A DNA stretch of 64,000 nucleotides from Candidatus Micrarchaeota archaeon (GCA_043821365.1 JBDRCX010000006.1:40840-104839), one strand, 5' to 3'; positions 8,383 through 61,181 are shown, numbered from the stretch's first letter. Program-made: numbers and translations. The notes: generated by a model not told the origin, from the sequence alone.

Positions 8383-8452
8383 AATAGTAATTTGATGAAT
8401 AAATCTTAAGAATAGGATGATTTTATAATAAGAAAAATTATAAAATAAAAAA

Positions 8453-13979: not shown

Positions 13980-14126
13980 CTCATAGCGAAATATCTAAAT
14001 GTGTGTTATGGTATATTTTAGTGGGGACCAATATTTAAATGTTTGTATTTGTTCAATTGTGGTGGTACTAAGACATTCTTCATGCCCCCAAACCATACAA
14101 TACATTTCTAACAAAAACTAATAATA

Positions 14127-35690: not shown

Positions 35691-35739
35691 TGACAAATGT
35701 CAGTTCATCCTTATATCAGATAAATTTTCAGTAGATTGC

Positions 35740-39909: not shown

Positions 39910-40135
39910 ACAGTTATCGTCTTCATGCATACGACAACAGGATAAATATGCTGAAAGAGCAAGTTTACAAATGGGAAAGAAAACTTGGGAAACAAATAAA
40001 CAGCCAGTTTTGGACCTTATCTTTTCGATGAGTTTTTGGGTACCTTTTTCCAAAAAAGGTACAAAACCGCTCTACAGCGGCACTAGAGATATATATTTCA
40101 AAAAAGAGATAGTTGGTGTGGGAATATGGAAGTAA
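39902..40135 (+). CDS. Small hypothetical protein (77 aa) bridging the paralog gene and the HerA-like ATPase
   Basis: ATG at 39902 with GAGGTGG 7 nt upstream. It overlaps the upstream stop in the same ATGNNTAA pattern used by the split paralog pairs, and overlaps the ATPase start by 10 nt. It contains a hydrophobic segment VLDLIFSMSFWVPF. Confidence 0.3.
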   Translation: MAKQLSSSCIRQQDKYAERASLQMGKKTWETNKQPVLDLIFSMSFWVPFSKKGTKPLYSGTRDIYFKKEIVGVGIWK

Positions 40136-42270
40136 GAGAAATACACCTCTACTCGGAAAAAGTAGAGGATAATGATGTTAAGAATCTGTTCAACCAGGTT
40201 ACCAAATCTAGGTTTCCACTATTTGGACTGATAGATCTGTCTAATATTTTCTCTCCTAATGCCCTTACGCTAGTAGTTAAAAGGAATATAAATACAGTAA
40301 AATTCTATGCAAAGGAAAAAGATTGCCTCCAGAATATCTCTCCACTAATTTTTCCATACAGAATGTGTGATCCAAGCTTGCTGAAGCTTTCTGGGGGCTC
40401 TTATTTCCCTTTTCCAAGAATGTACATCATCAATGGTGCAACCCATGATCTGCTTGACTTTATACTAAAAGAAAAGATAGAACAAATGACATTAAACGTA
40501 ACAAAAGTCATGGGACAGTTCATTGCAAACGGAACAGTAGTATGTGAAAATGGACAAAAAGGGATGTTCACTGTGCTAGCACCTCAAAAATTCCTTACGA
40601 TTAATCTTGAGAAAAACCCATCAATTTACATTGAACTCCTTGAGCCATTGCCAAAACAAATATATGTAAGCTCAAAATTCCCTGTTTTTGAAGAAACCGG
40701 AATTACTATGGGTGTGGATAACTACGACCCATTACAACACACAATAATAGCAGGAACTTCTGGTTCAGGAAAAAGTAAAGGGCTTTTTGTGTTGTTAAAA
40801 GCATTAGAAGCAAAGTACAAAGACGGTGCACGGGTGGTTGTGGTTGACCCACATGGGGAATTTGCAAGACTGTTCCCTCATGCCAAAGTTATAGATTTCA
40901 TAAAAAATTATGTTGAGCCACTAGACGTAGGAAAAGATAAATCCCCAATGCTGACCCAGTTGGTCTCACAATTAATTACCTCTTCGATAGGGCAAGAAAA
41001 CAAATATTCAGAACGTGTATTGTTTTATACTGTTCACCTTCTCTCATCAATCAATAAACTTGACCTTAACAATATAAGCCTACTTTTAACAGACTCATCA
41101 GTAAAGGCAGAATATGTCAGCATGTGTGATAATGATGAGGTAAAAAGATTCTTTGATGAAGAATACAATGACATACACATCCACCATTTCAACAATGCTA
41201 TTCTTCCAATTTTGAACTTTATTGGGGAGTACCAATTGTATTTAGGAAAGGAGAAAAAACGAGAGGGGCTTTTGGAATCCATCCAACAGAACAGAATAAC
41301 TGTAGTTGCATTTGACCCCAAATTCTTCGGAAGAAGAATGATTAGTTTCCTTGCTGGAGCAGTTATCAATCAGATGTATATTCTAGCAATTACAGGAAAA
41401 CTCCAAGAAAAACCAACTGTTTTGGTTGTTGATGAATTCCCAAGAGTGGAAACAAGAGTAACCAAGGACATTCTTTCAGAAACAAGAAAATTCAATTTAT
41501 TCGCATACCTATCATGCCAGTATTTGGGCCAGCTGAGCAAAGAAGTTCTTGATTCAATTGTATCAAATGCAAGAAACATAATTGCATTTAAGATAAATAA
41601 ACAAGATGCTGCAATGCTCAGCTCAATCATGGAAATAAAGGTCGAGGAATACTTCAAAAAGAGCAGAGCAACAACTGAACTTGAAGAGTCTAAAAAAGAG
41701 ATGTTTGTACGTTTACACCAGAGAGAGTGCATTGTCAGATTATTTGATGGTGTCAAATATCTTTTACCAATGAAACTAAAGATTGTTGATGCAAAAAAGT
41801 GGGGGCTGAGAGAAGGGACAGTACCTTACGTTGAAAGAGATCCACCACCAGAGGCACCAGGAGTGCCAAGATCAAAACCAATGACAAATGCATTCCAAGG
41901 ACAAGAACCTCAAGAAAGCGAAAAACCACAAATGACACCAGCAGGACCATTACCAAGAATGTCTGTTTCGCAACAGCAGGGAATACCAGGAGCACCACCA
42001 ATTGACAATGACACTGGACTGTATTGTGTAGCTGAAGAAGGAGAAACACCACCAGAAGAAGAAAAAGAAGAGAAACCAGCATTACCAGAACCAATGACTG
42101 AGAGTCCATGGTTGCAAGAAACACCAGATGCGATATACCAATTGGAAAAAGCAAAACTTAATGGTGTTATAAAAGATATGCCAAAACAACCTAAAGAAAC
42201 AGAAGATACAGATAAAAAACCAGAAGAGAAAAAACACAAAAAATCAAAAAAACCTAAGAAGAAAGAGTGA
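40126..42270 (+). CDS. HerA/FtsK-superfamily (DUF87-type) ATPase with an N-terminal unknown domain and a Pro/Glu/Lys-rich disordered C-terminal tail (714 aa)
   Basis: Walker A IIAGTSGSGKSKG is followed by the HerA-typical VVVDPHGEF. Walker B is VLVVDEFPRV. The C-terminal roughly 160 aa are low-complexity (PPPEAPGVP...EEEKEEKPALPEP...KKHKKSKKPKKKE). It sits where the two paralog arrays converge. Confidence 0.6.
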   Translation: MEVREIHLYSEKVEDNDVKNLFNQVTKSRFPLFGLIDLSNIFSPNALTLVVKRNINTVKFYAKEKDCLQNISPLIFPYRMCDPSLLKLSGGSYFPFPRMYIINGATHDLLDFILKEKIEQMTLNVTKVMGQFIANGTVVCENGQKGMFTVLAPQKFLTINLEKNPSIYIELLEPLPKQIYVSSKFPVFEETGITMGVDNYDPLQHTIIAGTSGSGKSKGLFVLLKALEAKYKDGARVVVVDPHGEFARLFPHAKVIDFIKNYVEPLDVGKDKSPMLTQLVSQLITSSIGQENKYSERVLFYTVHLLSSINKLDLNNISLLLTDSSVKAEYVSMCDNDEVKRFFDEEYNDIHIHHFNNAILPILNFIGEYQLYLGKEKKREGLLESIQQNRITVVAFDPKFFGRRMISFLAGAVINQMYILAITGKLQEKPTVLVVDEFPRVETRVTKDILSETRKFNLFAYLSCQYLGQLSKEVLDSIVSNARNIIAFKINKQDAAMLSSIMEIKVEEYFKKSRATTELEESKKEMFVRLHQRECIVRLFDGVKYLLPMKLKIVDAKKWGLREGTVPYVERDPPPEAPGVPRSKPMTNAFQGQEPQESEKPQMTPAGPLPRMSVSQQQGIPGAPPIDNDTGLYCVAEEGETPPEEEKEEKPALPEPMTESPWLQETPDAIYQLEKAKLNGVIKDMPKQPKETEDTDKKPEEKKHKKSKKPKKKE

Positions 42271-43828
42271 ACACGCTCCACTTCAAACTTTTATTATTTT
42301 CTAGTTTTTGGTTTATTTCATCTAAAACCATTTTTTTAATTTTAAGATACCTCTCTTTACCAACCTCAACATTGCCTATAGCGTACCGTTTATTCTTTAG
42401 ATTAAAACAGAACAGACAATTCGACAAACTTTCGCAGTTATGGCAGAATAATGAATCTGAGCAATCCCTGCAATTATCCATTTCAAAACATCTTGATAAT
42501 TTTTGAGAATGATAACAATTGATACAGAAATTAGAATCGAAAATAGTATCAAATCCAAAGCAATTATTGGAATCCTTGGGCCACATACCACAAGCACAGT
42601 ATTTTGACCTCACTACGGCAGATGCCTTGTAACAATGTGCTGCTCCAACAGTGACCGTAGACTCGATAAAATTCTCAACTTTGCCCTCTCTAATATCAAC
42701 AGTAAAATAGGATATTTTTCCAATATTTTCATGTGCATTTTCCAAACTTAATTTTTCGACTTCGTCTAGGTTAAATTTCACAGACTCGCCAATCTGTCTA
42801 GCCTCACCCATTGTAACAACAATATCCTCTGGGAGGGCCTCAAGTGCAATAACATAGGGTAGCATAAGTAGTCTTTTTCCACTGATGGCAGATTTTCTTT
42901 CCTCTATTTTATGTGCATGCCTATAGAGCCAATCATGATACTCGTCGATATCCTTTAGTCTTTTTCCAAAAATTACTGCCGATGTATTTGTAAATGCATT
43001 TTCAACTATTTCCTTATTTTCAGAATATTTTTCTTCATCAAGTGGAGGTAAATTTGGCTTTTGTAATTTGCCTTTTTTAACAATATCAAGCAAAGAAGGC
43101 AATGATTTGTTCTTTTTTAGTTCATCAACCATTTGTTCACAGAGGGATTTTTTTATTGAGAAATATTTTTCTTTGTCGATTTCCAGATTCCCTATGCAGT
43201 ATCTTTTATTTTTTAAGTGGAAAGAAAAAAGACAGTTGGAACAACCAGTTAGGTTTGATACATAATAACAATCTGAACAGTTCTGAGCAGACCAAATTTC
43301 AAACGAACGTTTAACAGAAAATGTCTGAGTACAACGAATACAGAATTCTGTTTCTCCTGGGCCATGGACTCCAAAACAATTGTTGCTATCCCTACCAACA
43401 GTGCAGTAAGCAAGATATTTTGAATTTATAAATTGGGCTGAATCAGTTACATAAAAACAATCAGTAAGATTACAACTTCTTTCTACATGGCTTGAGTTAC
43501 CAAGAACAGTATTACCACAGTAATAAGCCCTATCCGAAACCGCTTGTATAAGAGAATCAATATCTTTAATTTCGTTAATATCCAATGGTTCGAACTTCTT
43601 GTTAAAATCAACTTCATCGAAACTTATCCACTTGGAATTTGGATAATACTCCTTTATTGAAAATGCAACTTCTTTCCCAGATAGGGTTGATTTTCTGATT
43701 AGGTTTGAATCGATAAGACCAGAAAGCCATTTTGAATATTCTTCAAGCTCACCAATCTCTTCGCCAAATAATAGTTTTGTAGTTTTTTTCCATGATTGAT
43801 TCAGTATATTATACGTTTCTGATGACAT
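42254..43828 (-). CDS. Cys-rich paralog family, fused N+C two-module protein (524 aa)
   Basis: WKKTTKLLFGEEIGELEEYSKWL, INEIKDIDSLIQAV, linker KSLPSLLDIV, C-terminal CFEMDNCRDCSDSLFCHNCESLSNCLFCFNLKNKRYAIGN. The 3' end overlaps the convergent ATPase gene by 17 nt. Confidence 0.55.
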   Translation of the reverse strand: MSSETYNILNQSWKKTTKLLFGEEIGELEEYSKWLSGLIDSNLIRKSTLSGKEVAFSIKEYYPNSKWISFDEVDFNKKFEPLDINEIKDIDSLIQAVSDRAYYCGNTVLGNSSHVERSCNLTDCFYVTDSAQFINSKYLAYCTVGRDSNNCFGVHGPGETEFCIRCTQTFSVKRSFEIWSAQNCSDCYYVSNLTGCSNCLFSFHLKNKRYCIGNLEIDKEKYFSIKKSLCEQMVDELKKNKSLPSLLDIVKKGKLQKPNLPPLDEEKYSENKEIVENAFTNTSAVIFGKRLKDIDEYHDWLYRHAHKIEERKSAISGKRLLMLPYVIALEALPEDIVVTMGEARQIGESVKFNLDEVEKLSLENAHENIGKISYFTVDIREGKVENFIESTVTVGAAHCYKASAVVRSKYCACGMWPKDSNNCFGFDTIFDSNFCINCYHSQKLSRCFEMDNCRDCSDSLFCHNCESLSNCLFCFNLKNKRYAIGNVEVGKERYLKIKKMVLDEINQKLENNKSLKWSVFTLSS

Positions 43829-43829
43829 G

Positions 43830-44594
43830 CTATTTTTTACCCCCCAAATTGTAGATGTTCAGAACAAGCTTTTTTTCATTTTCTATTTTTTCTGCAATTT
43901 CACTCACAATCATTTTCTTTATTCTAAGGTACTCCTCCTTTCCAACTTCCACATTCATTATAGCATATCTAAGCGATTTTGCATTAAAACAGAACATACA
44001 ATTGTTCAAATTCTCGCAGTTATGGCAAAAGTAGCAATCAGTACAGTTGCTACAATCGCTTAATTCAAAGCACCTTGCTAGTTTTACGGAATTATAACAT
44101 TTGATAGAAAAATTTGAAGCAAATAAAAAGTGGGAACCAAAACAATATTCTGATTCTCTTGGCCAAAAACAGTAAGCATCACATTTTGAATAGATATACC
44201 AGACTCCATCTAAACAATGTTGGGCATGCATACAGGTGGATGTTTTTTGAAGGTCTTGATTCTGGCCAAGCATGACATCAGAAGTTACATAGTTTATTTC
44301 TTGTAATTTTTCTGAGGCATTAGATAGGGTTAATGTCTTTGCACCATGTTCTGAGATTTGTTTTTTACCAAGTTCAAGTGATTCTTCTAAAGTAACAAGA
44401 TTCTTTTTTATGGAATTGAAGAAGAGGATATCTGGCACGTAGACAATCTTGTCACTTACCTGGGATTTGGTATGGAGTGCTTTGTTTACATTTTCTAAAA
44501 GCCAATTTCGATAGCTTTCCAAATTAGTCAATTTTCTACCGAAAATAATTGAAGTGGTTTCCTGAAAGGCTTTTTCAATTTCCAAATTACCCAT
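43830..44594 (-). CDS. Cys-rich paralog family, C-module-only protein (about 254 aa)
   Basis: MGNLEIEKAFQETTSIIFGRKL...CFELSDCSNCTDCYFCHNCENLNNCMFCFNAKSLRYAIMN. ATG at 44594. Its start overlaps the upstream N-module stop as ATGGGTAA. Confidence 0.5.
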   Translation of the reverse strand: MGNLEIEKAFQETTSIIFGRKLTNLESYRNWLLENVNKALHTKSQVSDKIVYVPDILFFNSIKKNLVTLEESLELGKKQISEHGAKTLTLSNASEKLQEINYVTSDVMLGQNQDLQKTSTCMHAQHCLDGVWYIYSKCDAYCFWPRESEYCFGSHFLFASNFSIKCYNSVKLARCFELSDCSNCTDCYFCHNCENLNNCMFCFNAKSLRYAIMNVEVGKEEYLRIKKMIVSEIAEKIENEKKLVLNIYNLGGKK

Positions 44595-45357
44595 GCACAT
44601 CACCGTTAATTATATCTATCAATGATGGAAGTTTCTTTCTTGCTTTCAGAATCTCACGCATTTCACCAATGAGTTTTTCCTTTAATTTATGGTATTCTTC
44701 AGGACTAAATTGGTGGTTTCCGATCATATAACTTTTATTTCTTTGATTGAAAGAAAACATACAATTGGTGCAATTTTCCAGACTTCCTGTAAAATAACAA
44801 TCTGATGCAACATAGTTTCTGATGGTTTCCAAGCATCGGACATTTTTGTAGGTTTCAAAGGTTTTGATATTAAACTTACTCCCTTCACCAATTGCATTAC
44901 CACCAAAGATGTACTCTGCAAATCTTAGAACTGATGAGTATGCGACAAATTTACAATCATAAACATCTTGGGTTTTATAAATAAATGAGGAATTGATGCA
45001 CCTATTAGAGACCTGAACTTCACGGGAGTTACCAAGAACAACATTACCAATATAATATGCTTTTTCATTAACAGCTTCAATAATGGAATCAATATCTTTG
45101 ATTTTGTTTATATCATATTTTTGCTTGCCAATTGTGTTCATATATTGATCAATTTCATCAAGGCTTAGGAATTTGGCCCCTGGAGCAACTTTTTCAGATG
45201 ATACAATAACTTCTTTCCCAGATAAGGCGGATTTTTTCATACCAAATGGATCAACATATCTTAGAAGCCATGTCTCGTATTCACCAAGGTTGCCAAGTTC
45301 TTCTCCAAATAGCACCTTGGATGTTTTTTTCCATGCAACATTAATATCAGAATTCAT
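44587..45357 (-). CDS. Cys-rich paralog family, N-module-only protein (256 aa)
   Basis: WKKTSKVLFGEELGNLGEYETWL, INKIKDIDSIIEAV, CTNCMFSFNQRNKSYMIGN. It ends at the linker KKLPSLIDIINGDVHG. Confidence 0.5.
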   Translation of the reverse strand: MNSDINVAWKKTSKVLFGEELGNLGEYETWLLRYVDPFGMKKSALSGKEVIVSSEKVAPGAKFLSLDEIDQYMNTIGKQKYDINKIKDIDSIIEAVNEKAYYIGNVVLGNSREVQVSNRCINSSFIYKTQDVYDCKFVAYSSVLRFAEYIFGGNAIGEGSKFNIKTFETYKNVRCLETIRNYVASDCYFTGSLENCTNCMFSFNQRNKSYMIGNHQFSPEEYHKLKEKLIGEMREILKARKKLPSLIDIINGDVHG

Positions 45358-46127
45358 TATTGCTGCCCCACATTAAAAATATTCAAACTAAGTCGTTTGT
45401 CTTTTTCTAGTTTTTTTGTAAGTTCTTCAAGAACTTTTTGTTTTATTTCGAGGTATTTTTCTTTACCGACTTCGATATTGGCAATTGCGTACCTCTTTGC
45501 TTTTACATTAAAACAAAACATGCAGTTATTCAGATTTTCACAATTATGACAGAACAGTGAATCAGTACAATTGCTACAGTCACTCATTTCAAAGCAACGA
45601 TTAAGGTTTTCAGAATTGTAACACTTGATACAGAATTGAGAGGAAAAAGTGTAGAAAGTACCAATATTGTAATCTGATTGCCTTGGCCAAAAACAATAGA
45701 AACAATATTTGGAACGGACAAGAGCAACACACTTGTAACTATAATGAGATGAATAGTAAAAATCACAATCAATAAGATTGCTGCACTCACCATAGCGAGT
45801 ATTTGGAGTGGTGGTGGATAATTTTGCCAAAAGATTTTTAGCAGTGGAAAAGGTTAGTTGGTTTAGTTCATCATCAGAAAGATGGTTTTTTCCGTGGGTA
45901 AAATAGGCTTCTTCTATGGTAAGTATGTTGTGTTTTATGTCTCGATAAAAATCAAATGGTGGAAGGTATATTTTTTCACCACTAATAAGTGATTTGCCAT
46001 ATTCATTCGTTGATACATTTTCAGTTAGCCAATCTTCATAATCTTTGAAATTACAAAGTTTTTTGCCTAGAACAATCGAAGTAATGGTCTGAAAAGATTT
46101 TTCAAGATCAGATTCTAGTTTATCCAT
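45357..46127 (-). CDS. Cys-rich paralog family, C-module-only protein (about 256 aa)
   Basis: ATG at 46127 (MDKLESDLEKSFQTITSIVLGKKL...). CFEMSDCSNCTDSLFCHNCENLNNCMFCFNVKAKRYAIAN. The stop overlaps the next N-module ATG (TAATG). Confidence 0.5.
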   Translation of the reverse strand: MDKLESDLEKSFQTITSIVLGKKLCNFKDYEDWLTENVSTNEYGKSLISGEKIYLPPFDFYRDIKHNILTIEEAYFTHGKNHLSDDELNQLTFSTAKNLLAKLSTTTPNTRYGECSNLIDCDFYYSSHYSYKCVALVRSKYCFYCFWPRQSDYNIGTFYTFSSQFCIKCYNSENLNRCFEMSDCSNCTDSLFCHNCENLNNCMFCFNVKAKRYAIANIEVGKEKYLEIKQKVLEELTKKLEKDKRLSLNIFNVGQQ

Positions 46128-46908
46128 TCCAATCACCTTTCCCACTTATTATCTCTATTATCGAGGGAAGTTTCTTCTTTCTTTTAAGTTCATCGGCAAA
46201 TTCACCAACTAATTTTGATTTCAGTTCAGCATATTTATCTTTAGTCAGCTGTATATTGCCAATTAGATAGTTCTTATTTCTTTGATTAAATGAAAAGATA
46301 CAGTTGGTACAGTCCTCAAGACTTGCAGAATAGAAACTATCAGATGCAACATTACAATGATAGGTTTCCAAGCACCGGAGTTGTTTGTGCGGATCAAGGA
46401 CTTTTATACAGAACTGAATCTCTCCACCAAAACAACAACCAAATGAGTACTCTGGACTGCGAATAGAAGTTGTATATGCAACGTATTTTCCATCATAAAC
46501 ATCCTGGCAACCCATGGCATAAACAGTATTAACGCAACGGTGTGAGTTTATCACATTGGTTGAATGTCCCAAAACAATATTTCCAGCATAACAGACTTTT
46601 TCTTTAGCTGCATGAATAATTGAATCAACATCTTTGATATCATTGATATTGAAGGGCATTGAAAACATTCTTTTTTCGTATTCATGCATTTCCTCATGAC
46701 CTATCACTGGTGCTTGTTTTGGCACCCTATTGGATGAGATTGTAACATCATTGCCACTTAGAATGGATTTTCTTTTTACGATTGGGTCAGTATATGTTTT
46801 TAGATAATTTGTAAATTCTGATAGTTCACCAACTTCTTGACCAAGCAGAACCTTACAAGTGGATTTCCAAGATTTATTTAATTGATTAATAATCATAGCA
46901 TCAGACAT
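46120..46908 (-). CDS. Cys-rich paralog family, N-module-only protein (about 262 aa)
   Basis: ATG at 46908 (MSDAMIINQLNKSWKSTCKVLLGQEVGEL). INDIKDVDSIIHAA, CTNCIFSFNQRNKNYLIGN, linker KKLPSIIEIISGKGDWNG. Its stop/start overlap with the next gene is ATGGATAA. Confidence 0.5.
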   Translation of the reverse strand: MSDAMIINQLNKSWKSTCKVLLGQEVGELSEFTNYLKTYTDPIVKRKSILSGNDVTISSNRVPKQAPVIGHEEMHEYEKRMFSMPFNINDIKDVDSIIHAAKEKVCYAGNIVLGHSTNVINSHRCVNTVYAMGCQDVYDGKYVAYTTSIRSPEYSFGCCFGGEIQFCIKVLDPHKQLRCLETYHCNVASDSFYSASLEDCTNCIFSFNQRNKNYLIGNIQLTKDKYAELKSKLVGEFADELKRKKKLPSIIEIISGKGDWNG

Positions 46909-47689
46909 TAGGATCACCTTTTCCTATTGAATAAATGTCAAAATTTACGGTTTTAGTTTTTGATAATTGATCGTTAATATGAGTAAGTAGAATTTTTTTC
47001 ACACGCATATATTCTTCACGGCCAACTTCTATGTTTCCTATCGCATAGCGCTTATTTTTCACATTAAAGCAAAACATGCAGTCGTTCAGACCTTCTGAAT
47101 TATGACAGAATAGAATATCGCTTGAATGATAGCAACCATCAACTTCGAATGACCGGATAACTTTAACTGAATTGTAAGCATGAATGCAGAATTGGGAATA
47201 GGGAGTATTATGGCAACCAAACATATTCTGAGAATACATTGGATAGTTGGAATATGCCACGTTTTTTATGCCGCCATAAAGGTCGTCACCGTAGTATAGA
47301 TACATGCCATCCCCTGCACCACTGCATTTTTCAATGTTTGAAAATGTCTTCCATCTGAAATTACCGATGGCATAGGCAACTGGTTTTACAATCCTGTTTA
47401 CCATGTCTTTTATGTCAGAATCCTTTATCTCATCATAAATGAATTTAGTATGATTTACTTTGTCCATTTCTTCCATGGAAATAGATCTTTTGCTTGAAAT
47501 TTTTCTCCCCATAAAATTTAGAGTTGGGAAGTTCCAAACCTCAACATCACTAACTGCAGATTTAGCTGGATGGGGGAGTGGAACATATTTACCAAGCCAG
47601 GGACCATAATCATCAATACCAACTAGTGGTTTGCCAAGTAAAAGGTTAGATGTACTAGAAAATTCCTTTTCTAATTCAGGCCAGACCAT
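46901..47689 (-). CDS. Cys-rich paralog family, C-module-only protein (about 262 aa)
   Basis: ATG at 47689 (MVWPELEKEFSSTSNLLLGKPL). CMFCFNVKNKRYAIGNIEVGREEYMRVKKIL. The overlap with the upstream N-module stop is ATGTCTGA. Confidence 0.5.
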   Translation of the reverse strand: MVWPELEKEFSSTSNLLLGKPLVGIDDYGPWLGKYVPLPHPAKSAVSDVEVWNFPTLNFMGRKISSKRSISMEEMDKVNHTKFIYDEIKDSDIKDMVNRIVKPVAYAIGNFRWKTFSNIEKCSGAGDGMYLYYGDDLYGGIKNVAYSNYPMYSQNMFGCHNTPYSQFCIHAYNSVKVIRSFEVDGCYHSSDILFCHNSEGLNDCMFCFNVKNKRYAIGNIEVGREEYMRVKKILLTHINDQLSKTKTVNFDIYSIGKGDPNV

Positions 47690-47690
47690 A

Positions 47691-48467
47691 TTAGGCACCC
47701 TCCCCCAGAATATCCATTATGGACATTATTCTCTTTCTTTTTTTCAAATCCTCAGCCATTTCGCCTATTAATTTTGCCCTCAACGGGGCATATTGTTCTT
47801 TTGTGAGTTGTACATTGCCGACCATATTTCGTTTTGCACGTACATTGAAAGTGAAAAGGCAATCAGATGAACCAGTAACATTATGGCAGAAATAACAATC
47901 AGAACTACTTACAGTAAGACTGCACTCAAAACAGCGTTTGAGAGAATTGTTATAGAGGCATCTTATGAGCATGGAACTGTCACCGCTTGAAGTTGATGCA
48001 AAACAATATTCGTTATTCCGTAGCATGTAGCAGTATGCAACATATTTTCCATTGACAATCATTGATGAATCAAGAACATAATTGCTGTCAGTTATGTTAT
48101 CTGAATTTTTCACAAATTTCGAGTTTCCGAGAACTTTGTTGCCACTGTAAATGAATTTTTCTTCTACTGCATCAAAGAGAGAATCAACATCCTTGATTCG
48201 GTTTACATCAATTGGCTTGGACAGAATAGATGCACTTTGGATTTCTTTATTGTAATCAAAAAATCTGGCTTTTGGAGGATAATGTTTTGACGTGACAAAT
48301 AGGTCTTTGCCAGATATTATTGATTTTACTGATTTGCCAACCAATGGTTCTTTTAGATAGTCAGAATAATCAGACATCACGCTAAGTGGTTCCCCAAATA
48401 GGACTTTGGTAGTTTGCTTCCAAGCATTATCCATAATTGTCTCTATGCCATTAGTTTCGAATGCCAT
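47691..48467 (-). CDS. Cys-rich paralog family, N-module-only protein (about 258 aa)
   Basis: ATG at 48467 (MAFETNGIETIMDNAWKQTTKVLFGEPL); the track ORF begins at GTG 48506. VNRIKDVDSLFDAV, CLFTFNVRAKRNMVGN, linker KRIMSIMDILGEGA. Confidence 0.5.
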   Translation of the reverse strand: MAFETNGIETIMDNAWKQTTKVLFGEPLSVMSDYSDYLKEPLVGKSVKSIISGKDLFVTSKHYPPKARFFDYNKEIQSASILSKPIDVNRIKDVDSLFDAVEEKFIYSGNKVLGNSKFVKNSDNITDSNYVLDSSMIVNGKYVAYCYMLRNNEYCFASTSSGDSSMLIRCLYNNSLKRCFECSLTVSSSDCYFCHNVTGSSDCLFTFNVRAKRNMVGNVQLTKEQYAPLRAKLIGEMAEDLKKRKRIMSIMDILGEGA

Positions 48468-50047
48468 AATTTTGACCCTCTTCCACCTAAATTGAAAATG
48501 CTCCACGGAATGCTCTTTCTTTTTTCAAGATCATCAACGATCTGAGCAAGAACAGTGGATTTAATTGATTTGAACTTATCCTGTGGCAACACTCCATTGC
48601 CAATTGCAAACCGTAAATTTTTTGCATTAAAACAAAACATACTATCTCGTACATTTTCGCAATTGTGTGCAAAGTAAATATCTGAACAGTTATTTGATGC
48701 ATCCACCTCAAATGCTCTTGAGAGATTCATGGAATAATATGTGTGAATACAGAAATTCGAAGTAAATGAAAGACCACAACCATAGACATATTTTGAATGC
48801 CTAGGCCAATAGGAAAAGGCAACATTTTCATTGAATGATGCAATTGGACAGTAATAACAATTTACAGAAGTATTGCAAAGTGGAACCATGATTAAATTTT
48901 TTGTTTCTCCCAATTGACCTTCTGGATTGAAATAAGCAATTTTACCGATTGATTTTTTCAAGCTAGACAATGACTCTATATCTTCTCCATCAAGTTGCAG
49001 ATTTTCTCCTAATGCCCAATTTTCCCATTGGGTAACTAATCGATCACGAGAATAAAGGTGGAATGGTGAAGTTTCACCAAGATAAACTGGTTTTCCGGTT
49101 GCCGAAGATTTTTCTTCACTTATATATGGCACATGACTTAGCAACCAGCCCTTATAATTATCAATTTGTGAAAGGGGGTTGTTGAATAAAAGAGATGTTG
49201 TTTTTTGAAAACCTAATTCAATAGGTCCTTTATTTTTTTGTTCTTTATCATCAGAAGGATTGAAATTTTTTGGAACAGGAAGTGCATCACAACTTTTTGA
49301 TGCAATTTCCATCAATGATGGAAGTTTTTTCTTTATCTCAAGCTCAATCTTAAGATCTTCAATAAGTTTTTCTTTTAAAGAAAGATATTTTTCTTTTGTC
49401 AATTGGATATTTCCTATGACATTTCTTTTGTTTTTTAGATTAAATGAAAAAAGAACATCCTGTGAACCCTGGACACATGAACTGAAATAACAATCACTTG
49501 AATCATAACATTTCCATGCTTCAAGACATCGTGATTGTTTGTGGGTTTCAAATGCCCTTACTGTTGAGGTTGTAAAAGCATCACTAACAACACCAAAAAG
49601 ATATTTGCTACCCCGGCAATATGAACAATATGCCATATATTCTGAATCATAGATAAAATTGGAATTGTAAACATAGAACGAGTTTTGTACATCTGAACTT
49701 TTTTCAACATGTTTGGAATTTCCAAGAACAACATTACCGCAATAGTAAACTCTTTCTTCCAAAGCTTCAATGATAGAATCGATATCTTTGATCTCATTTA
49801 TATTCAATGGTTCGAATTTTTGGCCATAATCAATTTCATCAAGTGAAATAAATTTGGCATTGTCTTCATAATCAGATACGGCACAGTACACTTCTTTATT
49901 TGATTTTGCTGATTTTTTATTTTTTAGAGGAACACAACCTTCTGAAAGCCATTCGGAATAGTTATCAATATCACCTACCTCTGCACCTAAGAGCACTTTC
50001 ATAGTAGATTTCCAAGACTTGTTTATTGATTCACGAACCTCGGTCAT
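48443..50047 (-). CDS. Cys-rich paralog family, fused N+C two-module protein (534 aa)
   Basis: INKSWKSTMKVLLGAEVGDIDNYSEWL, INEIKDIDSIIEAL, linker KKLPSLMEIA, C-terminal AFEVDASNNCSDIYFAHNCENVRDSMFCFNAKNLRFAIGN. Its ATG overlaps the upstream stop (ATGA). Confidence 0.55.
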   Translation of the reverse strand: MTEVRESINKSWKSTMKVLLGAEVGDIDNYSEWLSEGCVPLKNKKSAKSNKEVYCAVSDYEDNAKFISLDEIDYGQKFEPLNINEIKDIDSIIEALEERVYYCGNVVLGNSKHVEKSSDVQNSFYVYNSNFIYDSEYMAYCSYCRGSKYLFGVVSDAFTTSTVRAFETHKQSRCLEAWKCYDSSDCYFSSCVQGSQDVLFSFNLKNKRNVIGNIQLTKEKYLSLKEKLIEDLKIELEIKKKLPSLMEIASKSCDALPVPKNFNPSDDKEQKNKGPIELGFQKTTSLLFNNPLSQIDNYKGWLLSHVPYISEEKSSATGKPVYLGETSPFHLYSRDRLVTQWENWALGENLQLDGEDIESLSSLKKSIGKIAYFNPEGQLGETKNLIMVPLCNTSVNCYYCPIASFNENVAFSYWPRHSKYVYGCGLSFTSNFCIHTYYSMNLSRAFEVDASNNCSDIYFAHNCENVRDSMFCFNAKNLRFAIGNGVLPQDKFKSIKSTVLAQIVDDLEKRKSIPWSIFNLGGRGSKLWHSKLMA

Positions 50048-51609
50048 TTCATCCCTCCGATGGTAAAAATATTAAATCGAAGATTTTTCTTGTCAAGTAT
50101 TTCTGAACTTAGTTGCTCAGTGATAGATTCTTTTATTTTGGAATAATCTGCTTGTGGGATGGTCGTATTCCCAATTGCATGCCTCTTGCCTTTTACATTA
50201 AAACAGAACATACTGTCACTTAGACCCTCAGAATTATGACAGAAAAATGAATCAGAACATTTGTTCGACGTGTCTACTTCTAGACAACGGCTAAGATATA
50301 GTGAATTATGACAATTGATACAGAACTCGGAATTCATATTACGGTAGCCACCAAAAATATACTTTGAACTAAATGCTGATGATATGACACCAAGATTTTC
50401 ACTTTGGACTATGTCAAAGCCTTTGTAGACATTGTTCGTATAGTAAACTAATGGTGACTGAATGATATTACTATTTACACCATCCAAAATTTCAACTGAA
50501 AAATAGGCAATTTCAGCGAGATTTGAAATGATTGAATCTACTGAATTGATTTTTGATGGATCCAGAGTGAGTTTACTAAGTTCCAACCCTTCCCCTAAAG
50601 TAACTAGAAGTTCTTTTGGAAAAAGAGAAAGGGCATATAGATCTGGATGAAGAGGGAGATAGGTTGTTCTTCCAAACATTGTTTTTATTGAATCCATCTT
50701 TATTTTTTCAGATGAAAGCCAAGACTCATAATTTTTTATTGTTCCAGGATCTTTTTTCAGAATAATTTTGAATGTTGATGTAAAACTCCTCTCAATTACT
50801 TGCATATCGCCTGTATCTGGTTTTTTTGGTGTGGAAAGAACTGGTCGTTTTGGTATTTTTCCCTTTCTTACTAGATCAAATAATGAAGGGTATTTTTTAT
50901 TCTTTTTCAGATCATGAACAACTTCGGATATAAGCTTCTTTTTCAATTCTAGATATTTGTCCCTAGTAAGTTGAAGATTTCCAATTCTATACTTTTTATT
51001 TCTTTGGAAAAATGAAAACAAAAGCTCACTAGAATTGACGCATTGATTAGAAAAATAGATATCAGTACAATCACCGAGAATTTGACTTTCAAAAATACGC
51101 TTGCAATGAAACCCACCATAGAACTTTATTGTAAATTCTGTTTTTCCGAACCACCCTGAACCAAAAATATGTTTACTGTTAAGACGAACTAAAGATGAAT
51201 GGAAAACGTTAGTAGATTGGGAGATATTCAGAGAATTGGCAACATAATTTGAATCCATTACAAGATCTGAAGATTCAACGAACTTGGAATTACCTAGAAT
51301 TCTGTTGCCTGTGTATGTCCATTCTTCAGAAACTGCCCTTGTAATTGAATCAATGTCTTTGATATCATTTATTGACAGTGGTTTTGATTCTTTTATTTCA
51401 TCTGCAGAAATAACTTTTGCCAATTTAGAATAATCTGATGCAAGTACCACATCTTTACCAGAAATTGCGGATTTTGAAACTTGAGGTTTTGGACAGTACT
51501 CCTTCAACCACTCTTCATAATCCCTAAGCTCACCTAGCTCTTCTCCAAGAAGAATCTTGCATGTTGATGACCAGGATTTGTTAAGTGATGAATAAAGCTC
51601 GGAATTCAT
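50044..51609 (-). CDS. Cys-rich paralog family, fused N+C two-module protein, most divergent member (521 aa)
   Basis: LNKSWSSTCKILLGEELGELRDYEEWL, INDIKDIDSITRAV, linker KKYPSLFDLV, C-terminal CLEVDTSNKCSDSFFCHNSEGLSDSMFCFNVKGKRHAIGN. First paralog of the minus-strand array. Confidence 0.55.
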   Translation of the reverse strand: MNSELYSSLNKSWSSTCKILLGEELGELRDYEEWLKEYCPKPQVSKSAISGKDVVLASDYSKLAKVISADEIKESKPLSINDIKDIDSITRAVSEEWTYTGNRILGNSKFVESSDLVMDSNYVANSLNISQSTNVFHSSLVRLNSKHIFGSGWFGKTEFTIKFYGGFHCKRIFESQILGDCTDIYFSNQCVNSSELLFSFFQRNKKYRIGNLQLTRDKYLELKKKLISEVVHDLKKNKKYPSLFDLVRKGKIPKRPVLSTPKKPDTGDMQVIERSFTSTFKIILKKDPGTIKNYESWLSSEKIKMDSIKTMFGRTTYLPLHPDLYALSLFPKELLVTLGEGLELSKLTLDPSKINSVDSIISNLAEIAYFSVEILDGVNSNIIQSPLVYYTNNVYKGFDIVQSENLGVISSAFSSKYIFGGYRNMNSEFCINCHNSLYLSRCLEVDTSNKCSDSFFCHNSEGLSDSMFCFNVKGKRHAIGNTTIPQADYSKIKESITEQLSSEILDKKNLRFNIFTIGGMK

Positions 51610-51696
51610 GTTAGTATGGACGCTTTAATCATATAATAGAGTAACACCGTTGCAGAGCGGTTTTGGCATCTCTCAATGAAATAATGCGTTGTTTAA

Positions 51697-52413: not shown

Positions 52414-52442
52414 ATAACAGATTCACCTTGATGATTTTAATA

Positions 52443-53549
52443 TTATGCAGCTTTTAGATTTTTTACAGGAAGAACTGTTTGTCCTTGGCCTCTGTGACTT
52501 GGGATTCTCTTCTTATCAAGTGCAAATGCCTCCCTTGCTCTTTTGCAGACAGTGTCACATATGGAACCCTGTTCAGTTTCCTTATTTGACCTAAGCCAGG
52601 CTTCTGCTTCTCTTACATAATGTGTAATTAAAAGAACACGATTTGCTACGATTTCTTCAAATGAATGGCCTCTAAGATCACCTTCATTCATATCAAGATT
52701 TGTAAATTTAGATGTGAAACATGCAGTAATATGGCCTTCTGCAGTTACACGCATATTATTTGAGGCACCATCGTGCACATCAGATAAAAAACGTTCGACT
52801 CTTTCCCTTGTTGTTAAACCATCACTTAGGATTAATGGTAAAGTGCATGCCCTTCCAGTTCTGCGCAATGGTTTTGCTGTTAAATCAACATCTAGAAATG
52901 GATTTGGAAGAGATCTTGGACTGCCATCAGGATTTGTCCTTCTTGCATTTTCAAAAATTGCAAAGTTTTCTCTTACCCATCTAAAAAAATCAGTCTCAAG
53001 AATTTCTCTTTCTGTTAAAACAGGGAATAGAGAACGGATCTGAACAGGCATCTCAACAGATTCAGGAAAACAAAGGACTTTTAGGCCTCTTGCAGCTAAC
53101 GGTGCTCTTGATATGAATAGAAGAGCATCACGAATTCTATTTTCATCTGAAAGATAACCGTATGGATGGTATGTGACATTGAAACGAACGTGTATACCAG
53201 ATTCTGCAAATTCTCGCAAAACAGTTTCAAGATGATCTTTATCCATATGGGGATTAAATCCACCAGTTAATACTCCTATGAAATTTGCATAACGTGAGAC
53301 TGAACGCAAAAAATTTGGAAGATCGCTGTGATAGGTTGGATCTCCACCTCCAAGTAGATTGATTTTTGTTCCAAGATCAGGAACTAGACGGGACTTGGGT
53401 CTTAGTCGGAAGTGACCAGACTGAAATAAAAGATCAACATCTTCTGGAGACAGCTCCAGTCCTTTCATATTGGCACTATCCCCACAGTGCTTGCAACCAT
53501 TGCCGCATTTGGATGTTGGATCTAATTGGCTGATGGTAAGATTATCCAT
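52443..53549 (-). CDS. Radical SAM domain protein (paralog 1)
   Basis: N-terminal CxxxCxxC cluster CGNGCKHCG at residues 15-22. About 368 aa. No C-terminal SPASM-type Cys cluster. Paralogous to 54787..55887 (shared LDPTS.CGN.CKHCGDS... and ...ICDTVCKRAREAF..D.KR.PSHRG.G.TVL). Confidence 0.55.
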   Translation of the reverse strand: MDNLTISQLDPTSKCGNGCKHCGDSANMKGLELSPEDVDLLFQSGHFRLRPKSRLVPDLGTKINLLGGGDPTYHSDLPNFLRSVSRYANFIGVLTGGFNPHMDKDHLETVLREFAESGIHVRFNVTYHPYGYLSDENRIRDALLFISRAPLAARGLKVLCFPESVEMPVQIRSLFPVLTEREILETDFFRWVRENFAIFENARRTNPDGSPRSLPNPFLDVDLTAKPLRRTGRACTLPLILSDGLTTRERVERFLSDVHDGASNNMRVTAEGHITACFTSKFTNLDMNEGDLRGHSFEEIVANRVLLITHYVREAEAWLRSNKETEQGSICDTVCKRAREAFALDKKRIPSHRGQGQTVLPVKNLKAA

Positions 53550-53653
53550 AGGCTAGTATTGTGTGGAAAACTATATAAAAGTGATGAATAGTGATAGAGA
53601 ATAAGTGTTTTAATTATTAGCAACTATTTAACATTTGTTAAATACTGGTTGTT

Positions 53654-53677
53654 AAAAATTTCACTTCGTGAAATTTT
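53654..53677. promoter_or_regulatory. Perfect 9-bp-arm palindrome (aaatttcac-ttc-gtgaaattt) overlapping a TATA-like AT box, 22 nt upstream of the inositol-phosphate synthase ATG
   Basis: Seen directly in the sequence. It lies in the divergent intergenic region between radical SAM paralog 1 and the synthase gene. Confidence 0.35.
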
Positions 53678-53699
53678 GACAAACCAACATAGTGATATT

Positions 53700-54785
53700 A
53701 TGAACAAGATCAAATGTGCAGTTGTTGGGGTTGGAAATTGTTTTGCTGGTCTGGTACAGGGAATTGAGTATTACAAACTGAATCCTGAACAGAGAGTAGT
53801 TGGAGTCATGCATGAAGAGATGGGCGGATATTCTATTCATGATATTGATTTTGTTGCTGGGTTTGATGTTGATTCTAAAAAAGTGGGCCAAACATTAAGC
53901 AATGCGGTTTATGCCGAACCGAATAAAGTAAAATGGGTTGAATCTTTATCTTCCATGAGTGATGTTACTGTGAAACAATCCCCCCAATTGGATGGAGTGG
54001 GGATATATGTAAGTAAAGTCGTGCACCCAGTAAAAGAAAGGCCAATTGAAGAACTTAAAAAAGAGATTGTGACAGAGTTGGCTGAAAAAAAAGTAGAGAT
54101 TATTGTTTCCTATTTACCAGTTGGATCTGATAATGCTACAAAATTCTGGGCACAGGTTTGTTTGGATGCTGGAGTTGGATTTGTTAATTGTATGCCGAGT
54201 TTTATTGCTTCAGATCCAGAATGGGCAGCGAAATTTGAAAATTCTGGAATTCCCATCGTTGGAGACGACATAAAAGGCCAGGTCGGAGCTACCATAGTTC
54301 ACAGAACACTTGCAAAACTCTGTGATAAAAGAGCAACAAAAATAGAAAAAACATATCAAATCAATGTTGGTGGAAATACTGATTTTTTATCCATGAAAGA
54401 ACAGGATAGACTCACATCAAAAAAGATATCAAAAACAGAATCAGTTCAATCACAACTTTCTCAGAGATTGGAGGATGACCAGATATATGTTGGGCCATCA
54501 GATTTCATCCCATTTTTAGGAAATACAAAATTAATGTTTATGCGAATAGAAGGTAAGATGTGGGCAAATATTCCTTATAATATGGAAGTTAGATTAGAAG
54601 TTGATGATAAAGCCAATTCAGCAGGAATAGTAGTTGATGCAATAAGATATTGTAGAATAGCACTTGACAGAAAGCAAGGAGGCCCATTGATTGGCCCAAG
54701 TGCCTGGTTGATGAAACATCCACCAAAACAGTTCAGTGATGATGAAGCACAACGACTTGCAAGTGAATTTGTAAAAAATAAATAA
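53700..54785 (+). CDS. myo-Inositol-1-phosphate (inositol-3-phosphate) synthase family protein
   Basis: N-terminal Rossmann motif KCAVVGVGN. GDDIKGQVGATIVHRTLAKL corresponds to MIPS NDGKTGETLVKTTLAPMF. GGNTDFLSMKEQDRLTSKKISKTESV corresponds to the MIPS KxSK region. ATG at 53700; the track ORF starts at 53649. Confidence 0.6.
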   Translation: MNKIKCAVVGVGNCFAGLVQGIEYYKLNPEQRVVGVMHEEMGGYSIHDIDFVAGFDVDSKKVGQTLSNAVYAEPNKVKWVESLSSMSDVTVKQSPQLDGVGIYVSKVVHPVKERPIEELKKEIVTELAEKKVEIIVSYLPVGSDNATKFWAQVCLDAGVGFVNCMPSFIASDPEWAAKFENSGIPIVGDDIKGQVGATIVHRTLAKLCDKRATKIEKTYQINVGGNTDFLSMKEQDRLTSKKISKTESVQSQLSQRLEDDQIYVGPSDFIPFLGNTKLMFMRIEGKMWANIPYNMEVRLEVDDKANSAGIVVDAIRYCRIALDRKQGGPLIGPSAWLMKHPPKQFSDDEAQRLASEFVKNK

Positions 54786-54786
54786 T

Positions 54787-55887
54787 CTAACGTACCAGAG
54801 CACGTGCTTTCAAGACAGTGTTTCCATGCCCGCGATGACTTGGAAAACGCTTGGGGTCATCTATAAATGCTTCTCTTGCTCTTCTACAAACAGTATCACA
54901 TATTGTACCTGATTCAGACGTATGTGATCTTAGCCATCTTCTTGATTCAGAAATAAGATGTTCGATAAATAATAAACGATTAGACCGAATTTCATCATAA
55001 TTATGACCATACAAATCTCCCTCAAAAAAATCTGTTCGTGGAAATCTGGATGATTCACAACCTGTCACAAAACCATCATATGTGACTCTAAGAGGATGGA
55101 CATATAATTGCGGTGCTAAAGCAAGCATAGCTTCAACATTCCTCGTAGTGGTAGTACCAGAAAGTAAAATACGTGGTAGTGTAAGTGCTCTTCCACTACA
55201 CCTCAAAGAATCTTCGTTATACTCCAGAATTAATGGTGGTTTGGTAGTATTATATGAAGCTGCACCAAGATACATCTTTAATGGGGAGGCCATAAAGATC
55301 ACTCCAAATTTTTTATTTATCCAACGCCAAAGATCGCTTCTCTCGAAATTAGCACGGGTCATGTAAGGAAAGGTATGTTTAATAGCACGGTCAACGTGAA
55401 CAGCAAGTTCTTCAGGTATGCAACGAACACGCAAAGTCCATCCAAGGATACCAGAATCTCTAAACATCAATAATGTTTTTTTTATTCTAGCATCATGACC
55501 ATTAGAACCAAAGGGATGATGATTAATGGTGAAATTGATCTTTACTCCAGTTGAACAAAGTGTATTGACCTTTCTTAATTGTTGTAAAGTTAGTTGGCGA
55601 CTAACACCACCAGTTAAAACAAGAATTGATGGTGCAAAAGAAGATAAAAGACGTATTAGTTCAACAAATCCATGCACATACGCAGTTGGATCTCCCCCAC
55701 CAGCTAAAGCAAACATCTGAGAATTAGCAACGCCAGAAATACCAAAGAAGCCAGAGGTAAATATAGCCTCAATATCTTCTAATGGCATGGCTTGCCCATT
55801 TGGTAAACTTGAATCGCCGCAATGTTTGCAAAAATTCCCACAGCTAGATGTCGGATCAAGTTGCCCAATGATTAATTTATCTGCCAT
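54787..55887 (-). CDS. Radical SAM domain protein (paralog 2)
   Basis: CGNFCKHCG at residues 16-23. 366 aa with ATG at 55887 (the track has TTG at 55896). Shares end-to-end similarity with paralog 1. Confidence 0.55.
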   Translation of the reverse strand: MADKLIIGQLDPTSSCGNFCKHCGDSSLPNGQAMPLEDIEAIFTSGFFGISGVANSQMFALAGGGDPTAYVHGFVELIRLLSSFAPSILVLTGGVSRQLTLQQLRKVNTLCSTGVKINFTINHHPFGSNGHDARIKKTLLMFRDSGILGWTLRVRCIPEELAVHVDRAIKHTFPYMTRANFERSDLWRWINKKFGVIFMASPLKMYLGAASYNTTKPPLILEYNEDSLRCSGRALTLPRILLSGTTTTRNVEAMLALAPQLYVHPLRVTYDGFVTGCESSRFPRTDFFEGDLYGHNYDEIRSNRLLFIEHLISESRRWLRSHTSESGTICDTVCRRAREAFIDDPKRFPSHRGHGNTVLKARALVR

Positions 55888-59966: not shown

Positions 59967-61181
59967 TCACCTTCCAAATTTTGCAACCAACTTGTCTCGT
60001 ATCTGGTCTTTTTTTCTAAGAAGAGCAAGATCATGTTTTCTAATCCAATCATTTGCTTTTGATTGGTCTAGAATACCTTGTTCAACAAGTATTCTGGTGT
60101 TTGTTAGCCTGCCAGTTAGATGAGCAGTTATTTGTGCTAATCCTGGCGCCACCAATTCATCTGAGCCAAAACAAATAGTGTGTAAAGCCATGTTCCTCTC
60201 ATGAGCTGCTTTGACCAGGCTCTTTGTTTTGATTTCTTCTAAAGTTGTTGCAAGCACAATTTCAACGTCGCCTTTTCTTCCGTTGTCTTGAACCTCTATT
60301 GCTTGATTGAAACCACAACCCCCATCATTACCAACTCCAGTCATATGACAGGGAAGTAAGCCTGAGAGAACTAGATTCGACCAAATTTCTCTTGTTTCAT
60401 CTCTAGCATCCCAAACCAGATTGTGTGCCATATGCTCTGCAGGGGCAACCAACAACCCATCAGTTGCATCAACTCTTACAATTGCCCTTTGTTTGAAAGC
60501 AGAGACAATATCTTCAACAATTTTTAGAAGTAATTCTGGCTCGATAATTCTTACTACTCCATCAACTAATTTTTCTAAATAAATTTCTCTGGTTGTTTCT
60601 ATTGATTCCGATTTGCCTGATAATAGAAGACCAACCTGTCTTGCAAGTATAAGCAAAGTTGCAATTGTAACTTCCTCTAGTTTTTGTTGGTCTTGAAGAG
60701 GAATGATAATGAGATGGTCTGGAACGTTTTGTTTTGTAATTAACCCATTTGCACTTATTGAGACGGTTCTGGCACCAGATTTCCTAGAAAGTGCTGACGC
60801 GCCCAAGATATTGCATGAGTTTCCGCTTGCACTAACCAAAATTACAAGATCTCCTTTTCTGGCTCTTCTGGTAAGTATATGGTCGAATAATGATTCGCTT
60901 CTTCTGGATAGGATTCCATCAAGTTTTGGATTGCCAAAACTACCAAATTTAATAGTAGGATCAACTTCTCGTTCAAGAGCAAAAAGGAATGAATCAGCCT
61001 CTGCGTGGCTGCCTCCATTTCCAAAGGCAAAAATATTTCCATTAGCACTTATTGTTTGGACAATATCATGAATGATTGGAATTAGAGAGTGATTGCAAAC
61101 TTCCCTTAGACCTGCCACCACATCTTGGACATATTCTTGTATAAATATACCGAGATCTTTTTCGAATTGTGGTGGGAACAT
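59967..61181 (-). CDS. SIS-domain protein (GmhA/phosphoheptose-isomerase-like N-domain) with a roughly 200-aa C-terminal extension
   Basis: FAFGNGGSHAEADSF and VILVSASGNSCNILGA are SIS motifs in the first roughly 190 aa. The C-terminal half has no recognisable motif. 404 aa. Confidence 0.45.
   Translation of the reverse strand: MFPPQFEKDLGIFIQEYVQDVVAGLREVCNHSLIPIIHDIVQTISANGNIFAFGNGGSHAEADSFLFALEREVDPTIKFGSFGNPKLDGILSRRSESLFDHILTRRARKGDLVILVSASGNSCNILGASALSRKSGARTVSISANGLITKQNVPDHLIIIPLQDQQKLEEVTIATLLILARQVGLLLSGKSESIETTREIYLEKLVDGVVRIIEPELLLKIVEDIVSAFKQRAIVRVDATDGLLVAPAEHMAHNLVWDARDETREIWSNLVLSGLLPCHMTGVGNDGGCGFNQAIEVQDNGRKGDVEIVLATTLEEIKTKSLVKAAHERNMALHTICFGSDELVAPGLAQITAHLTGRLTNTRILVEQGILDQSKANDWIRKHDLALLRKKDQIRDKLVAKFGR

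Follow-up and report, generated by a model that had tools for sequence, protein, structure and literature searches.

The window considered here is a 64-kb stretch, given as one strand, from a Candidatus Micrarchaeota metagenome-assembled genome (MAG). It contains two genes for radical S-adenosylmethionine (SAM) enzymes, here called rSAM-A and rSAM-B, which bracket a gene for a myo-inositol-1-phosphate (inositol-3-phosphate) synthase (MIPS). A gene for an HTH_10-family regulator follows rSAM-A on the same strand after a gap of 29 nt, and nine paralogous genes for Cys-rich proteins come next (Table 1). A first-pass annotation, made from the DNA alone, had described this arrangement, and all of its elements were recovered: both radical-SAM open reading frames (ORFs) are intact, their products have an N-terminal CxxxCxxC motif and share 38% identity from end to end (E 9e-83), the MIPS gene lies between them on the opposite strand, and the regulator and array are positioned as described. 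The two radical-SAM proteins also share a C-terminal block, ICDTVC(K/R)RAREAF...PSHRG.G.TVL. The rSAM-A and MIPS genes are divergent, and the 3' end of rSAM-B converges on that of MIPS with a 1-nt gap (54785/54787).

Table 1. Coordinates of genes and sequence elements at the radical-SAM/MIPS locus
Feature	Coordinates	Strand	Basis or remark
rSAM-A, radical-SAM enzyme, A clade, 368 aa	52443-53549	-	ORF call, paralogue alignment
rSAM-B, radical-SAM enzyme, B clade, 366 aa	54787-55887	-	ORF call, paralogue alignment
MIPS, ATG at 53700	53700-54785	+	Domain and PDB matches
HTH_10-family regulator, 238 aa	51697-52413	-	PF04967 match
Cys-rich paralogue array, nine genes	42254-51609	-	ORF calls, family comparison
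Five more Cys-rich family genes (one A/B pair, three A-B fusions)	30175-30912, 30909-31625, 34122-35690, 35647-37383, 38317-39909	+	
Palindrome P1, perfect 10-bp arms: AAAATTTCAC (53655-53664), ttc, GTGAAATTTT (53668-53677)	53655-53677		Ends 22 nt before MIPS ATG
Palindrome P2: TATTTAACA-tt-TGTTAAATA	53625-53644		Sequence-invariant in three genomes; missed by the first-pass annotation
TATA-like box TTTATATA	53572-53579	-	Centre ~26 nt upstream of rSAM-A ATG; read from sequence; conserved in L001, L008
TATTAAAA box	52435-52442	-	Upstream of HTH_10
GGTGA Shine-Dalgarno-like motif	52423-52427	-	Upstream of HTH_10
Promoter module of first array gene: ACCGn7ACGGTGTTA then TATTATAT	51631-51661	-	Centre ~26 nt upstream of ATG 51609

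Judging by its matches, the central gene is a genuine MIPS, scoring 110.3 bits against PF01658 (Inos-1-P_synth, cut-off 27) and aligning with M. tuberculosis Ino1 (PDB 1gr0) over residues 3-358 at 370 bits and E 8e-110; the score against the actinobacterial equivalog TIGR03450 is 400 bits, below its 638-bit cut-off. The HTH_10 assignment is based on a PF04967 match of 69.5 bits (cut-off 23.1) at residues 176-227. A CDP-alcohol phosphatidyltransferase motif was looked for in the window and is absent.

Both rSAM-A and rSAM-B are true radical-SAM enzymes with a canonical SAM-cleaving [4Fe-4S] site, formed by the CxxxCxxC and GGGDPT motifs. In a family alignment of 15 sequences, including an outlier (P0016) at 19% identity, the three cysteines (C15/C19/C22 in rSAM-A, C16/C20/C23 in rSAM-B) are invariant in every member with a complete N-terminus, and the GGGDPT motif (67-72), which aligns with the SAM-binding GGEP(T) block of Tes, is also invariant. 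The Pfam gathering score for PF04055 (29.5) is missed by rSAM-A (28.2 bits) and by rSAM-B (20.6 bits), which is accounted for by the high divergence of the family; the precomputed annotation of rSAM-A (P0001) and of its orthologues P0003 and P0004 does list PF04055.

The first-pass annotation reported no SPASM or twitch Cys cluster, but three further cysteines (C277, C331 and C335) are kept by each of the 15 aligned sequences, even the 19%-identical outlier. The first of these sits after a predicted beta-hairpin (266-275) in a G-x4-C pattern, inside a weak SPASM match at residues 263-304. This match does not reach the PF13186 cut-off (17.1 bits in rSAM-A against 21.5, and no match in rSAM-B), and with three extra conserved cysteines the proteins lack the seven-Cys motif of SPASM domains, which have two auxiliary clusters. 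An AlphaFold model of rSAM-A (pLDDT 83, pTM 0.82) places the fold class: the best Foldseek match is EpeE (probability 1.0, TM 0.52-0.54, E 3e-5), followed by MoaA and SuiB (probability 0.99), and all three belong to the SPASM/twitch clade. By analogy with MoaA, the C-terminal domain is most likely a truncated twitch-like one in which C277, C331 and C335 would hold a single auxiliary [4Fe-4S] cluster with an open iron site. Many basic residues are also invariant (R138, R229, R339, R348, H128, H295, H310 and H352-R353), and they fit a substrate that is anionic, phosphorylated and small; we thus infer a twitch-like enzyme with one auxiliary cluster acting on an anionic small molecule. Neither protein has transmembrane or other hydrophobic segments or an N-terminal peptide-recognition domain, and the Cys motif begins at residue 15.

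The pair is not assignable to a named or housekeeping radical-SAM subfamily, in agreement with the first-pass annotation, which had left both proteins unassigned. Scans of the rSAM proteins against Pfam, NCBIfam, PADLOC and PHROGs returned no named subfamily above cut-off, and in the NCBIfam scan of the window proteins no model scored more than 13 bits, against cut-offs of 131-325. Several particular identities were rejected. MoaA (TIGR02668/TIGR02666) scores 12.9 bits against a 325-bit cut-off and its CxxC-x13-C spacing is missing; glycyl-radical-enzyme activase/NrdG reaches 13 bits over 47 residues against a 131-bit cut-off; and YydG/EpeE (TIGR04078, cut-off 300 bits) gives no match at E <= 0.1, the likeness being at the level of the fold only. 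The sole match in a PDB sequence search is Tes/GDGT-MAS (7tol, E 0.006-0.007), but the alignment is confined to residues 5-100 at 18 bits and there is no NCBIfam match to the corresponding model (NF045702). Membership of HxsC was likewise rejected, with no score above cut-off.

The family to which the two proteins belong is small, at about a dozen clusters. Among 5.8 billion proteins, word-indexed searching turned up no more than nine or ten relatives. When 1.84 billion cluster representatives were searched exhaustively with a HMMER profile, eight full-length clusters scored above 329 bits and two N-terminal fragments scored 77-81 bits; below these the scores fall to 60 bits or less, and the matches are to the generic radical-SAM core only. 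The next-nearest proteins are unnamed radical-SAM proteins with weak matches to the YydG, Tes, MoaA, TrsS and HxsC models, and no function can therefore be transferred from them. All members with a traceable origin are from Micrarchaeota or from a MAG labelled Iainarchaeum (DPANN). Within these searches the family is an orphan one restricted to DPANN, with rSAM-A and rSAM-B as anciently diverged members. The family is previously undescribed, and a literature search found no publication in which radical-SAM enzymes of archaea, DPANN included, are connected with MIPS or archaetidylinositol. In a neighbour-joining tree, clade A comprises rSAM-A, the Bilamarchaeum protein, two tandem copies from the Ga0233425/Ga0438288 population, the L002 protein and P0011, and clade B comprises rSAM-B, the proteins of L003, L004 and L007, and P0007, P0009 and P0012; P0013 is basal to both. 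The two N-terminal fragments from the profile search, P0014 (72 aa) and P0015 (181 aa), have only about the first 70 family residues, fused to unrelated sequence in P0015, which suggests gene decay in some populations.

In the context check proposed in the first-pass annotation, linkage of the radical-SAM genes to MIPS is kept by orthologues in several lineages. At L001 (Bilamarchaeum) the radical-SAM gene is divergent from MIPS, as rSAM-A is in the window, and at L008, which together with L005 and L009 represents the Ga0233425/Ga0438288 population, MIPS is divergent from two tandem radical-SAM genes. At three further loci MIPS is paired with a CDP-alcohol phosphatidyltransferase gene (archaetidylinositol phosphate synthase, AIPS): the radical-SAM gene converges on the 3' end of the AIPS-MIPS pair with a 0-nt gap at L002 (11125/11126), overlaps it at L007 (1123-1134; labelled Iainarchaeum), and is two small genes away at L004. 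Adjacency to MIPS, often with an AIPS gene, is thus a feature of both clades, and at least four lineages with different arrangements show it; because the remaining neighbours all differ among the MIPS-linked loci, the radical-SAM gene is the only constant one.

Several further features of these loci were noted. The convergent ends of the radical-SAM and MIPS or AIPS genes (window, L002 and L007) are separated by 0-1 nt or overlap and leave no room for a terminator, such that the transcripts would overlap and antisense interference is possible. At L002 another radical-SAM gene (12913-14064, minus strand, 383 aa) immediately precedes MIPS-AIPS in the same orientation, and there too MIPS-AIPS is bracketed by two radical-SAM genes; this additional gene was rejected as a family member since its relation to the family is undetectable (hhalign E 0.05). 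Aminotransferase genes are found by the cluster at two loci, a class I/II gene upstream of MIPS at L004 (4071-5249, minus strand) and a class IV gene divergent from the radical-SAM gene at L010 (71-1771, minus strand). By analogy they recall the aminocyclitol trio of cyclitol synthase, radical-SAM dehydrogenase and aminotransferase, and they may be ordinary housekeeping genes.

Linkage to the HTH_10 gene and the Cys-rich family is the narrower association. In the window, L001 and L005/L009, the rSAM-A, HTH_10 and array genes lie on the same strand, and at L003, which is independent, a B-clade radical-SAM gene is divergently paired with the gene for a 544-aa array-family member (38-41% identical), with a distant HTH_10 gene downstream. 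However, the genomes of the window, L001 and the Ga population are closely related and represent roughly one lineage, as seen in identities of 85% for a ligase, 77% for an M17 peptidase, 79-83% for the array proteins in one-to-one order and 88-89% for HTH_10. The linkage that the first-pass annotation had proposed to check does recur in orthologues, but only in these close relatives (flanks ~80% identical at the amino acid level) and in L003, which makes the association with MIPS the broader of the two.

The Cys-rich family is also more extensive than the nine genes originally recorded, and the window has 14 members spanning ~15 kb. Two TrmB-family regulator genes (33260-34027 and 37364-38101) are interleaved with the five plus-strand members. 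In the nine-gene array ~255-aa A and B units alternate, and three of the genes are A-B fusions. The suggestion that the array proteins undergo Cys modification was not specifically supported: Ser, Asp or Ala often stands in place of Cys in the aligned columns, and the number of cysteines per protein varies from 6 to 26. Fixed sites for metal binding or cross-linking fit this pattern less well than does a repetitive beta-rich core. A structure model of an array protein was poor (pLDDT 62) and gave no significant fold match. The array adjoins the radical-SAM genes, and a functional link between them is unproven. In the Ga0233425/Ga0438288 population a PIN/RHH toxin-antitoxin pair is located between HTH_10 and the first array gene (L005 3064-3679, minus strand; L009 ~1390-2140).

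The divergent region between MIPS and rSAM-A contains two palindromes. A palindromic operator had been proposed there from P1 in the first-pass annotation; the palindrome is real, its position is conserved and its right arm falls at the TATA-equivalent position for MIPS, as that annotation had placed it, but the arms are 10 bp rather than 9. An imperfect extension of P1 spans 53646-53686. There are ten perfect palindromes of this kind in the window where about one is expected by chance, and the significance of P1 therefore rests mainly on its positional conservation in two other genomes, where equivalents occur 22-24 nt upstream of the MIPS ATG (AAAATTTCGC-aa-GCGAAATTTT in L001 and AAAATTCACT-ca-AGTGAATTTT in L008). 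The inner bases of the arms co-vary symmetrically, with CAC/GTG changing to CGC/GCG and one T:A pair lost from each arm. The window, L001 and L008 share one and the same HTH_10 recognition helix, and this regulator therefore does not explain the co-variation. In the extended stems, G·U-compatible positions occur solely on the MIPS-sense strand, with folding energies of -8.6 kcal/mol in the window and -16.6 kcal/mol in L008. P1 may be a 5'-leader hairpin or an operator of another factor. Counting against the hairpin is the location of the right arm at the TATA-equivalent position; TATA-like boxes ~26 nt from the start codons of rSAM-A, HTH_10 and the first array gene suggest that their transcripts are leaderless. 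A half-site of P2, ACTATTTAA(C/A)A, is also present upstream of MIPS in L004 and L002, and P2 is either the better operator candidate or a bidirectional TATA module. No known RNA family was found at P1 or P2.

Promoter-like elements elsewhere at the locus bear on how it is transcribed. The position of the TATA-like box upstream of rSAM-A suggests a promoter that would be leaderless or give a short leader. The ACCGn7ACGGTGTTA-TATA module of the first array gene is conserved in the window, L001 and L009. The first-pass annotation had raised the prospect of a single ~11-kb operon running from rSAM-A through the array, but this is unlikely because a conserved TATA-like element ~26 nt upstream of the first array gene, and another at that distance from HTH_10, point to their being transcribed separately. 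HTH_10 and the conserved palindromes of the divergent MIPS/rSAM-A region probably control expression.

Other features of the window lie outside the cluster. A gene for a 404-aa SIS-domain (phosphosugar-binding) protein (59967-61181, minus strand) is 4 kb from rSAM-B, an adjacency that is not kept at other loci. On the other side, a 714-aa HerA/FtsK/TrwB-like ATPase with a long Pro/Glu/Lys-rich tail and a weak PADLOC mads_8 match is encoded at 40126-42270 on the plus strand, and its gene shares 17 nt at the 3' end with the last array gene. At 17430-17553, a span of 125 nt or less holds three perfect hairpins in tandem, whose arms of 10-11 bp are TCCCGCTTTT, CCAACCTTTTT and CCAAACTTTTT, each with its complement; these could be terminators or a small repeat element. 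A mobile or viral origin of the locus was rejected, since neither phage genomes nor a defence-system scan gave a match.

Taken together, the reading that we favour, and hold tentatively, is that rSAM-A and rSAM-B are an orphan twitch-like pair tied to inositol-phosphate and archaetidylinositol synthesis, most plausibly carrying out a radical oxidation, epimerisation or rearrangement of a cyclitol. They would act in the pathway of MIPS and, in the relatives, of AIPS, which makes archaetidylinositol phosphate. A 5'-deoxyadenosyl radical would abstract a hydrogen from the cyclitol ring of an inositol phosphate or of an inositol lipid head group, with oxidation, epimerisation or rearrangement as the outcome, and the many invariant arginines and histidines would provide the phosphate contacts; the auxiliary cluster, substrate and chemistry are here what we infer, and the family membership, conserved cysteines, fold class and gene linkage are what is observed. 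The more specific idea that this is a twitch-type clade making an undescribed modified inositol, whether oxidised, epimerised, ring-rearranged or aminated, on inositol phosphate or archaetidylinositol is possible but doubtful.

Known systems provide partial parallels. MoaA (GTP 3',8-cyclase), in which the open iron of a three-Cys auxiliary cluster binds the substrate (PMC9012708), and BtrN (2-deoxy-scyllo-inosamine dehydrogenase), a twitch enzyme that oxidises a cyclitol (PMC9012708), resemble the family in having a CxxxCxxC core and a short C-terminal extension with a beta-hairpin ending in Cys. MoaA also has three extra cysteines and is among the top Foldseek matches, but its spacing is CxxC-x13-C rather than C-x53-C-x3-C, it has no match at the sequence level, and its genomic context is different; BtrN does not appear among the PDB matches of the rSAM proteins, whether by sequence or by fold. 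EpeE/YydG epimerase (PDB 8ai1-8ai6), the best fold match, is similar in size and also lacks a separate peptide-recognition domain, but is only 13-14% identical, and the conserved neighbour of the family is MIPS rather than a peptide precursor, with no small peptide gene evident by the radical-SAM genes. In function, the counterpart would be calditol synthase (Cds), a radical-SAM enzyme that remodels the sugar or cyclitol head group of archaeal lipids and the sole example of archaeal head-group chemistry by such an enzyme in a 2026 review (PMC13459092). Cds differs in that its head group is glucose-derived, on glycerol dialkyl glycerol tetraethers of Sulfolobales, whereas the genes here are for inositol phosphate and archaetidylinositol in DPANN.

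A number of observations weigh against an inositol-directed function. All of the functional support comes from gene neighbourhood, with no characterised member among the homologues; the best structural match, EpeE, modifies peptides. No MIPS gene is present within 10 kb of the basal P0013 (L015) or of the outlier P0016 (L016), nor in the 14 kb examined at L003. Several of the radical-SAM/MIPS pairs are convergent and cannot have a promoter in common, and the lineages are fairly related DPANN (MIPS 60-82% identical), so inherited synteny contributes to the pattern. Moreover, rSAM-A is only 47% identical between the window (52443-53549) and L001 (10001-11137), against 77-88% for the genes on either side, and Bilamarchaeum has no rSAM-B, both of which are unusual for an enzyme of a core lipid pathway. 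The radical-SAM genes thus evolve fast and can be lost, and rSAM-A is either a fast-evolving outlier or has been replaced by a paralogue. In L001 the position and orientation of rSAM-B are taken by a gene for a 333-aa LAGLIDADG_3-domain protein (7734-8735, plus strand), with no detectable remnant of rSAM-B.

The enzymes may instead act on an unrelated substrate (such as a cofactor, nucleotide or RNA), with the MIPS adjacency resulting only from inherited synteny or a shared regulatory region in small, compact genomes, and we regard this as rather unlikely. In its favour, four of the radical-SAM/MIPS pairings are convergent, the basal and outlier members are unlinked to MIPS, and the fast evolution, the loss of rSAM-B and the fragments P0014 and P0015 are signs of an accessory gene that can be dispensed with; a nucleotide, as in MoaA (PMC9012708), would be no less suited to the basic residues and the arrangement of three cysteines. 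Such a role is, however, difficult to square with the persistence of the radical-SAM gene within ~1 kb of MIPS/AIPS in both clades and in both layouts while the other neighbours change. In a lipid-chain alternative, the enzymes would modify isoprenoid chains, as Tes, GrsA/B and Gms do, in place of the head group, and would recognise the lipid by its inositol phosphate. Linkage to lipid head-group genes would be consistent with this, as would a PcrB/GGGP synthase gene 7 kb from the L003 radical-SAM gene and the fact that the only PDB sequence match is an archaeal lipid radical-SAM enzyme, Tes/GDGT-MAS. But the similarity to Tes is over the first 100 residues, which are generic core; Tes, at 526 aa, has additional cluster domains and is ~150 aa longer; and rSAM-A and rSAM-B have no hydrophobic segments, and we consider modification of the chains very improbable.

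The Cys-rich array prompts a different explanation, in which the radical-SAM proteins are maturases for its beta-rich paralogues (installing, for example, thioether cross-links, epimerised residues or oxidised Cys/Ser) and HTH_10 is the regulator of the system. The SPASM/twitch enzymes EpeE, SuiB and anSME install post-translational modifications, and the peptide epimerase EpeE is the best fold match; the shared strand of rSAM-A, HTH_10 and array in the window, L001 and L005/L009, and the divergent pairing at L003 with its distant HTH_10 gene downstream, are likewise as expected. We nonetheless judge maturation of the array to be improbable. The linkage is from only two independent lineages, and L002, L004 and L007 have the radical-SAM gene by MIPS/AIPS with no array gene in the DNA examined. 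Within the window a conserved promoter of its own precedes the first array gene, and the five further family members, 10-20 kb away, are accompanied by TrmB regulators and by no radical-SAM gene. The putative targets also lack conserved Cys positions, and they are 79-83% conserved between genomes where the radical-SAM protein is 47% conserved.

Overall, the pair is a real and new form of a known enzyme class, in a functional context that is suggestive. The family is small and has clear invariant residues, and is thus tractable for in vitro reconstitution. If the proteins were instead maturases of the array, they would be a first handle on a protein family that occupies ~15 kb of a ~0.8-Mb genome. 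If the association with inositol-lipid synthesis is correct, they would represent a new reaction for the twitch/SPASM class and would join calditol synthase, so far the only radical-SAM enzyme with a known role on archaeal lipid head groups, as the second of its kind. DPANN archaea are thought to be minimal in lipid metabolism and host-dependent. A radical-SAM pair tied to inositol-lipid synthesis would give them a head-group chemistry of their own, possibly providing a diagnostic lipid biomarker, and Micrarchaeota and Iainarchaeota would have a lineage-specific membrane lipid.

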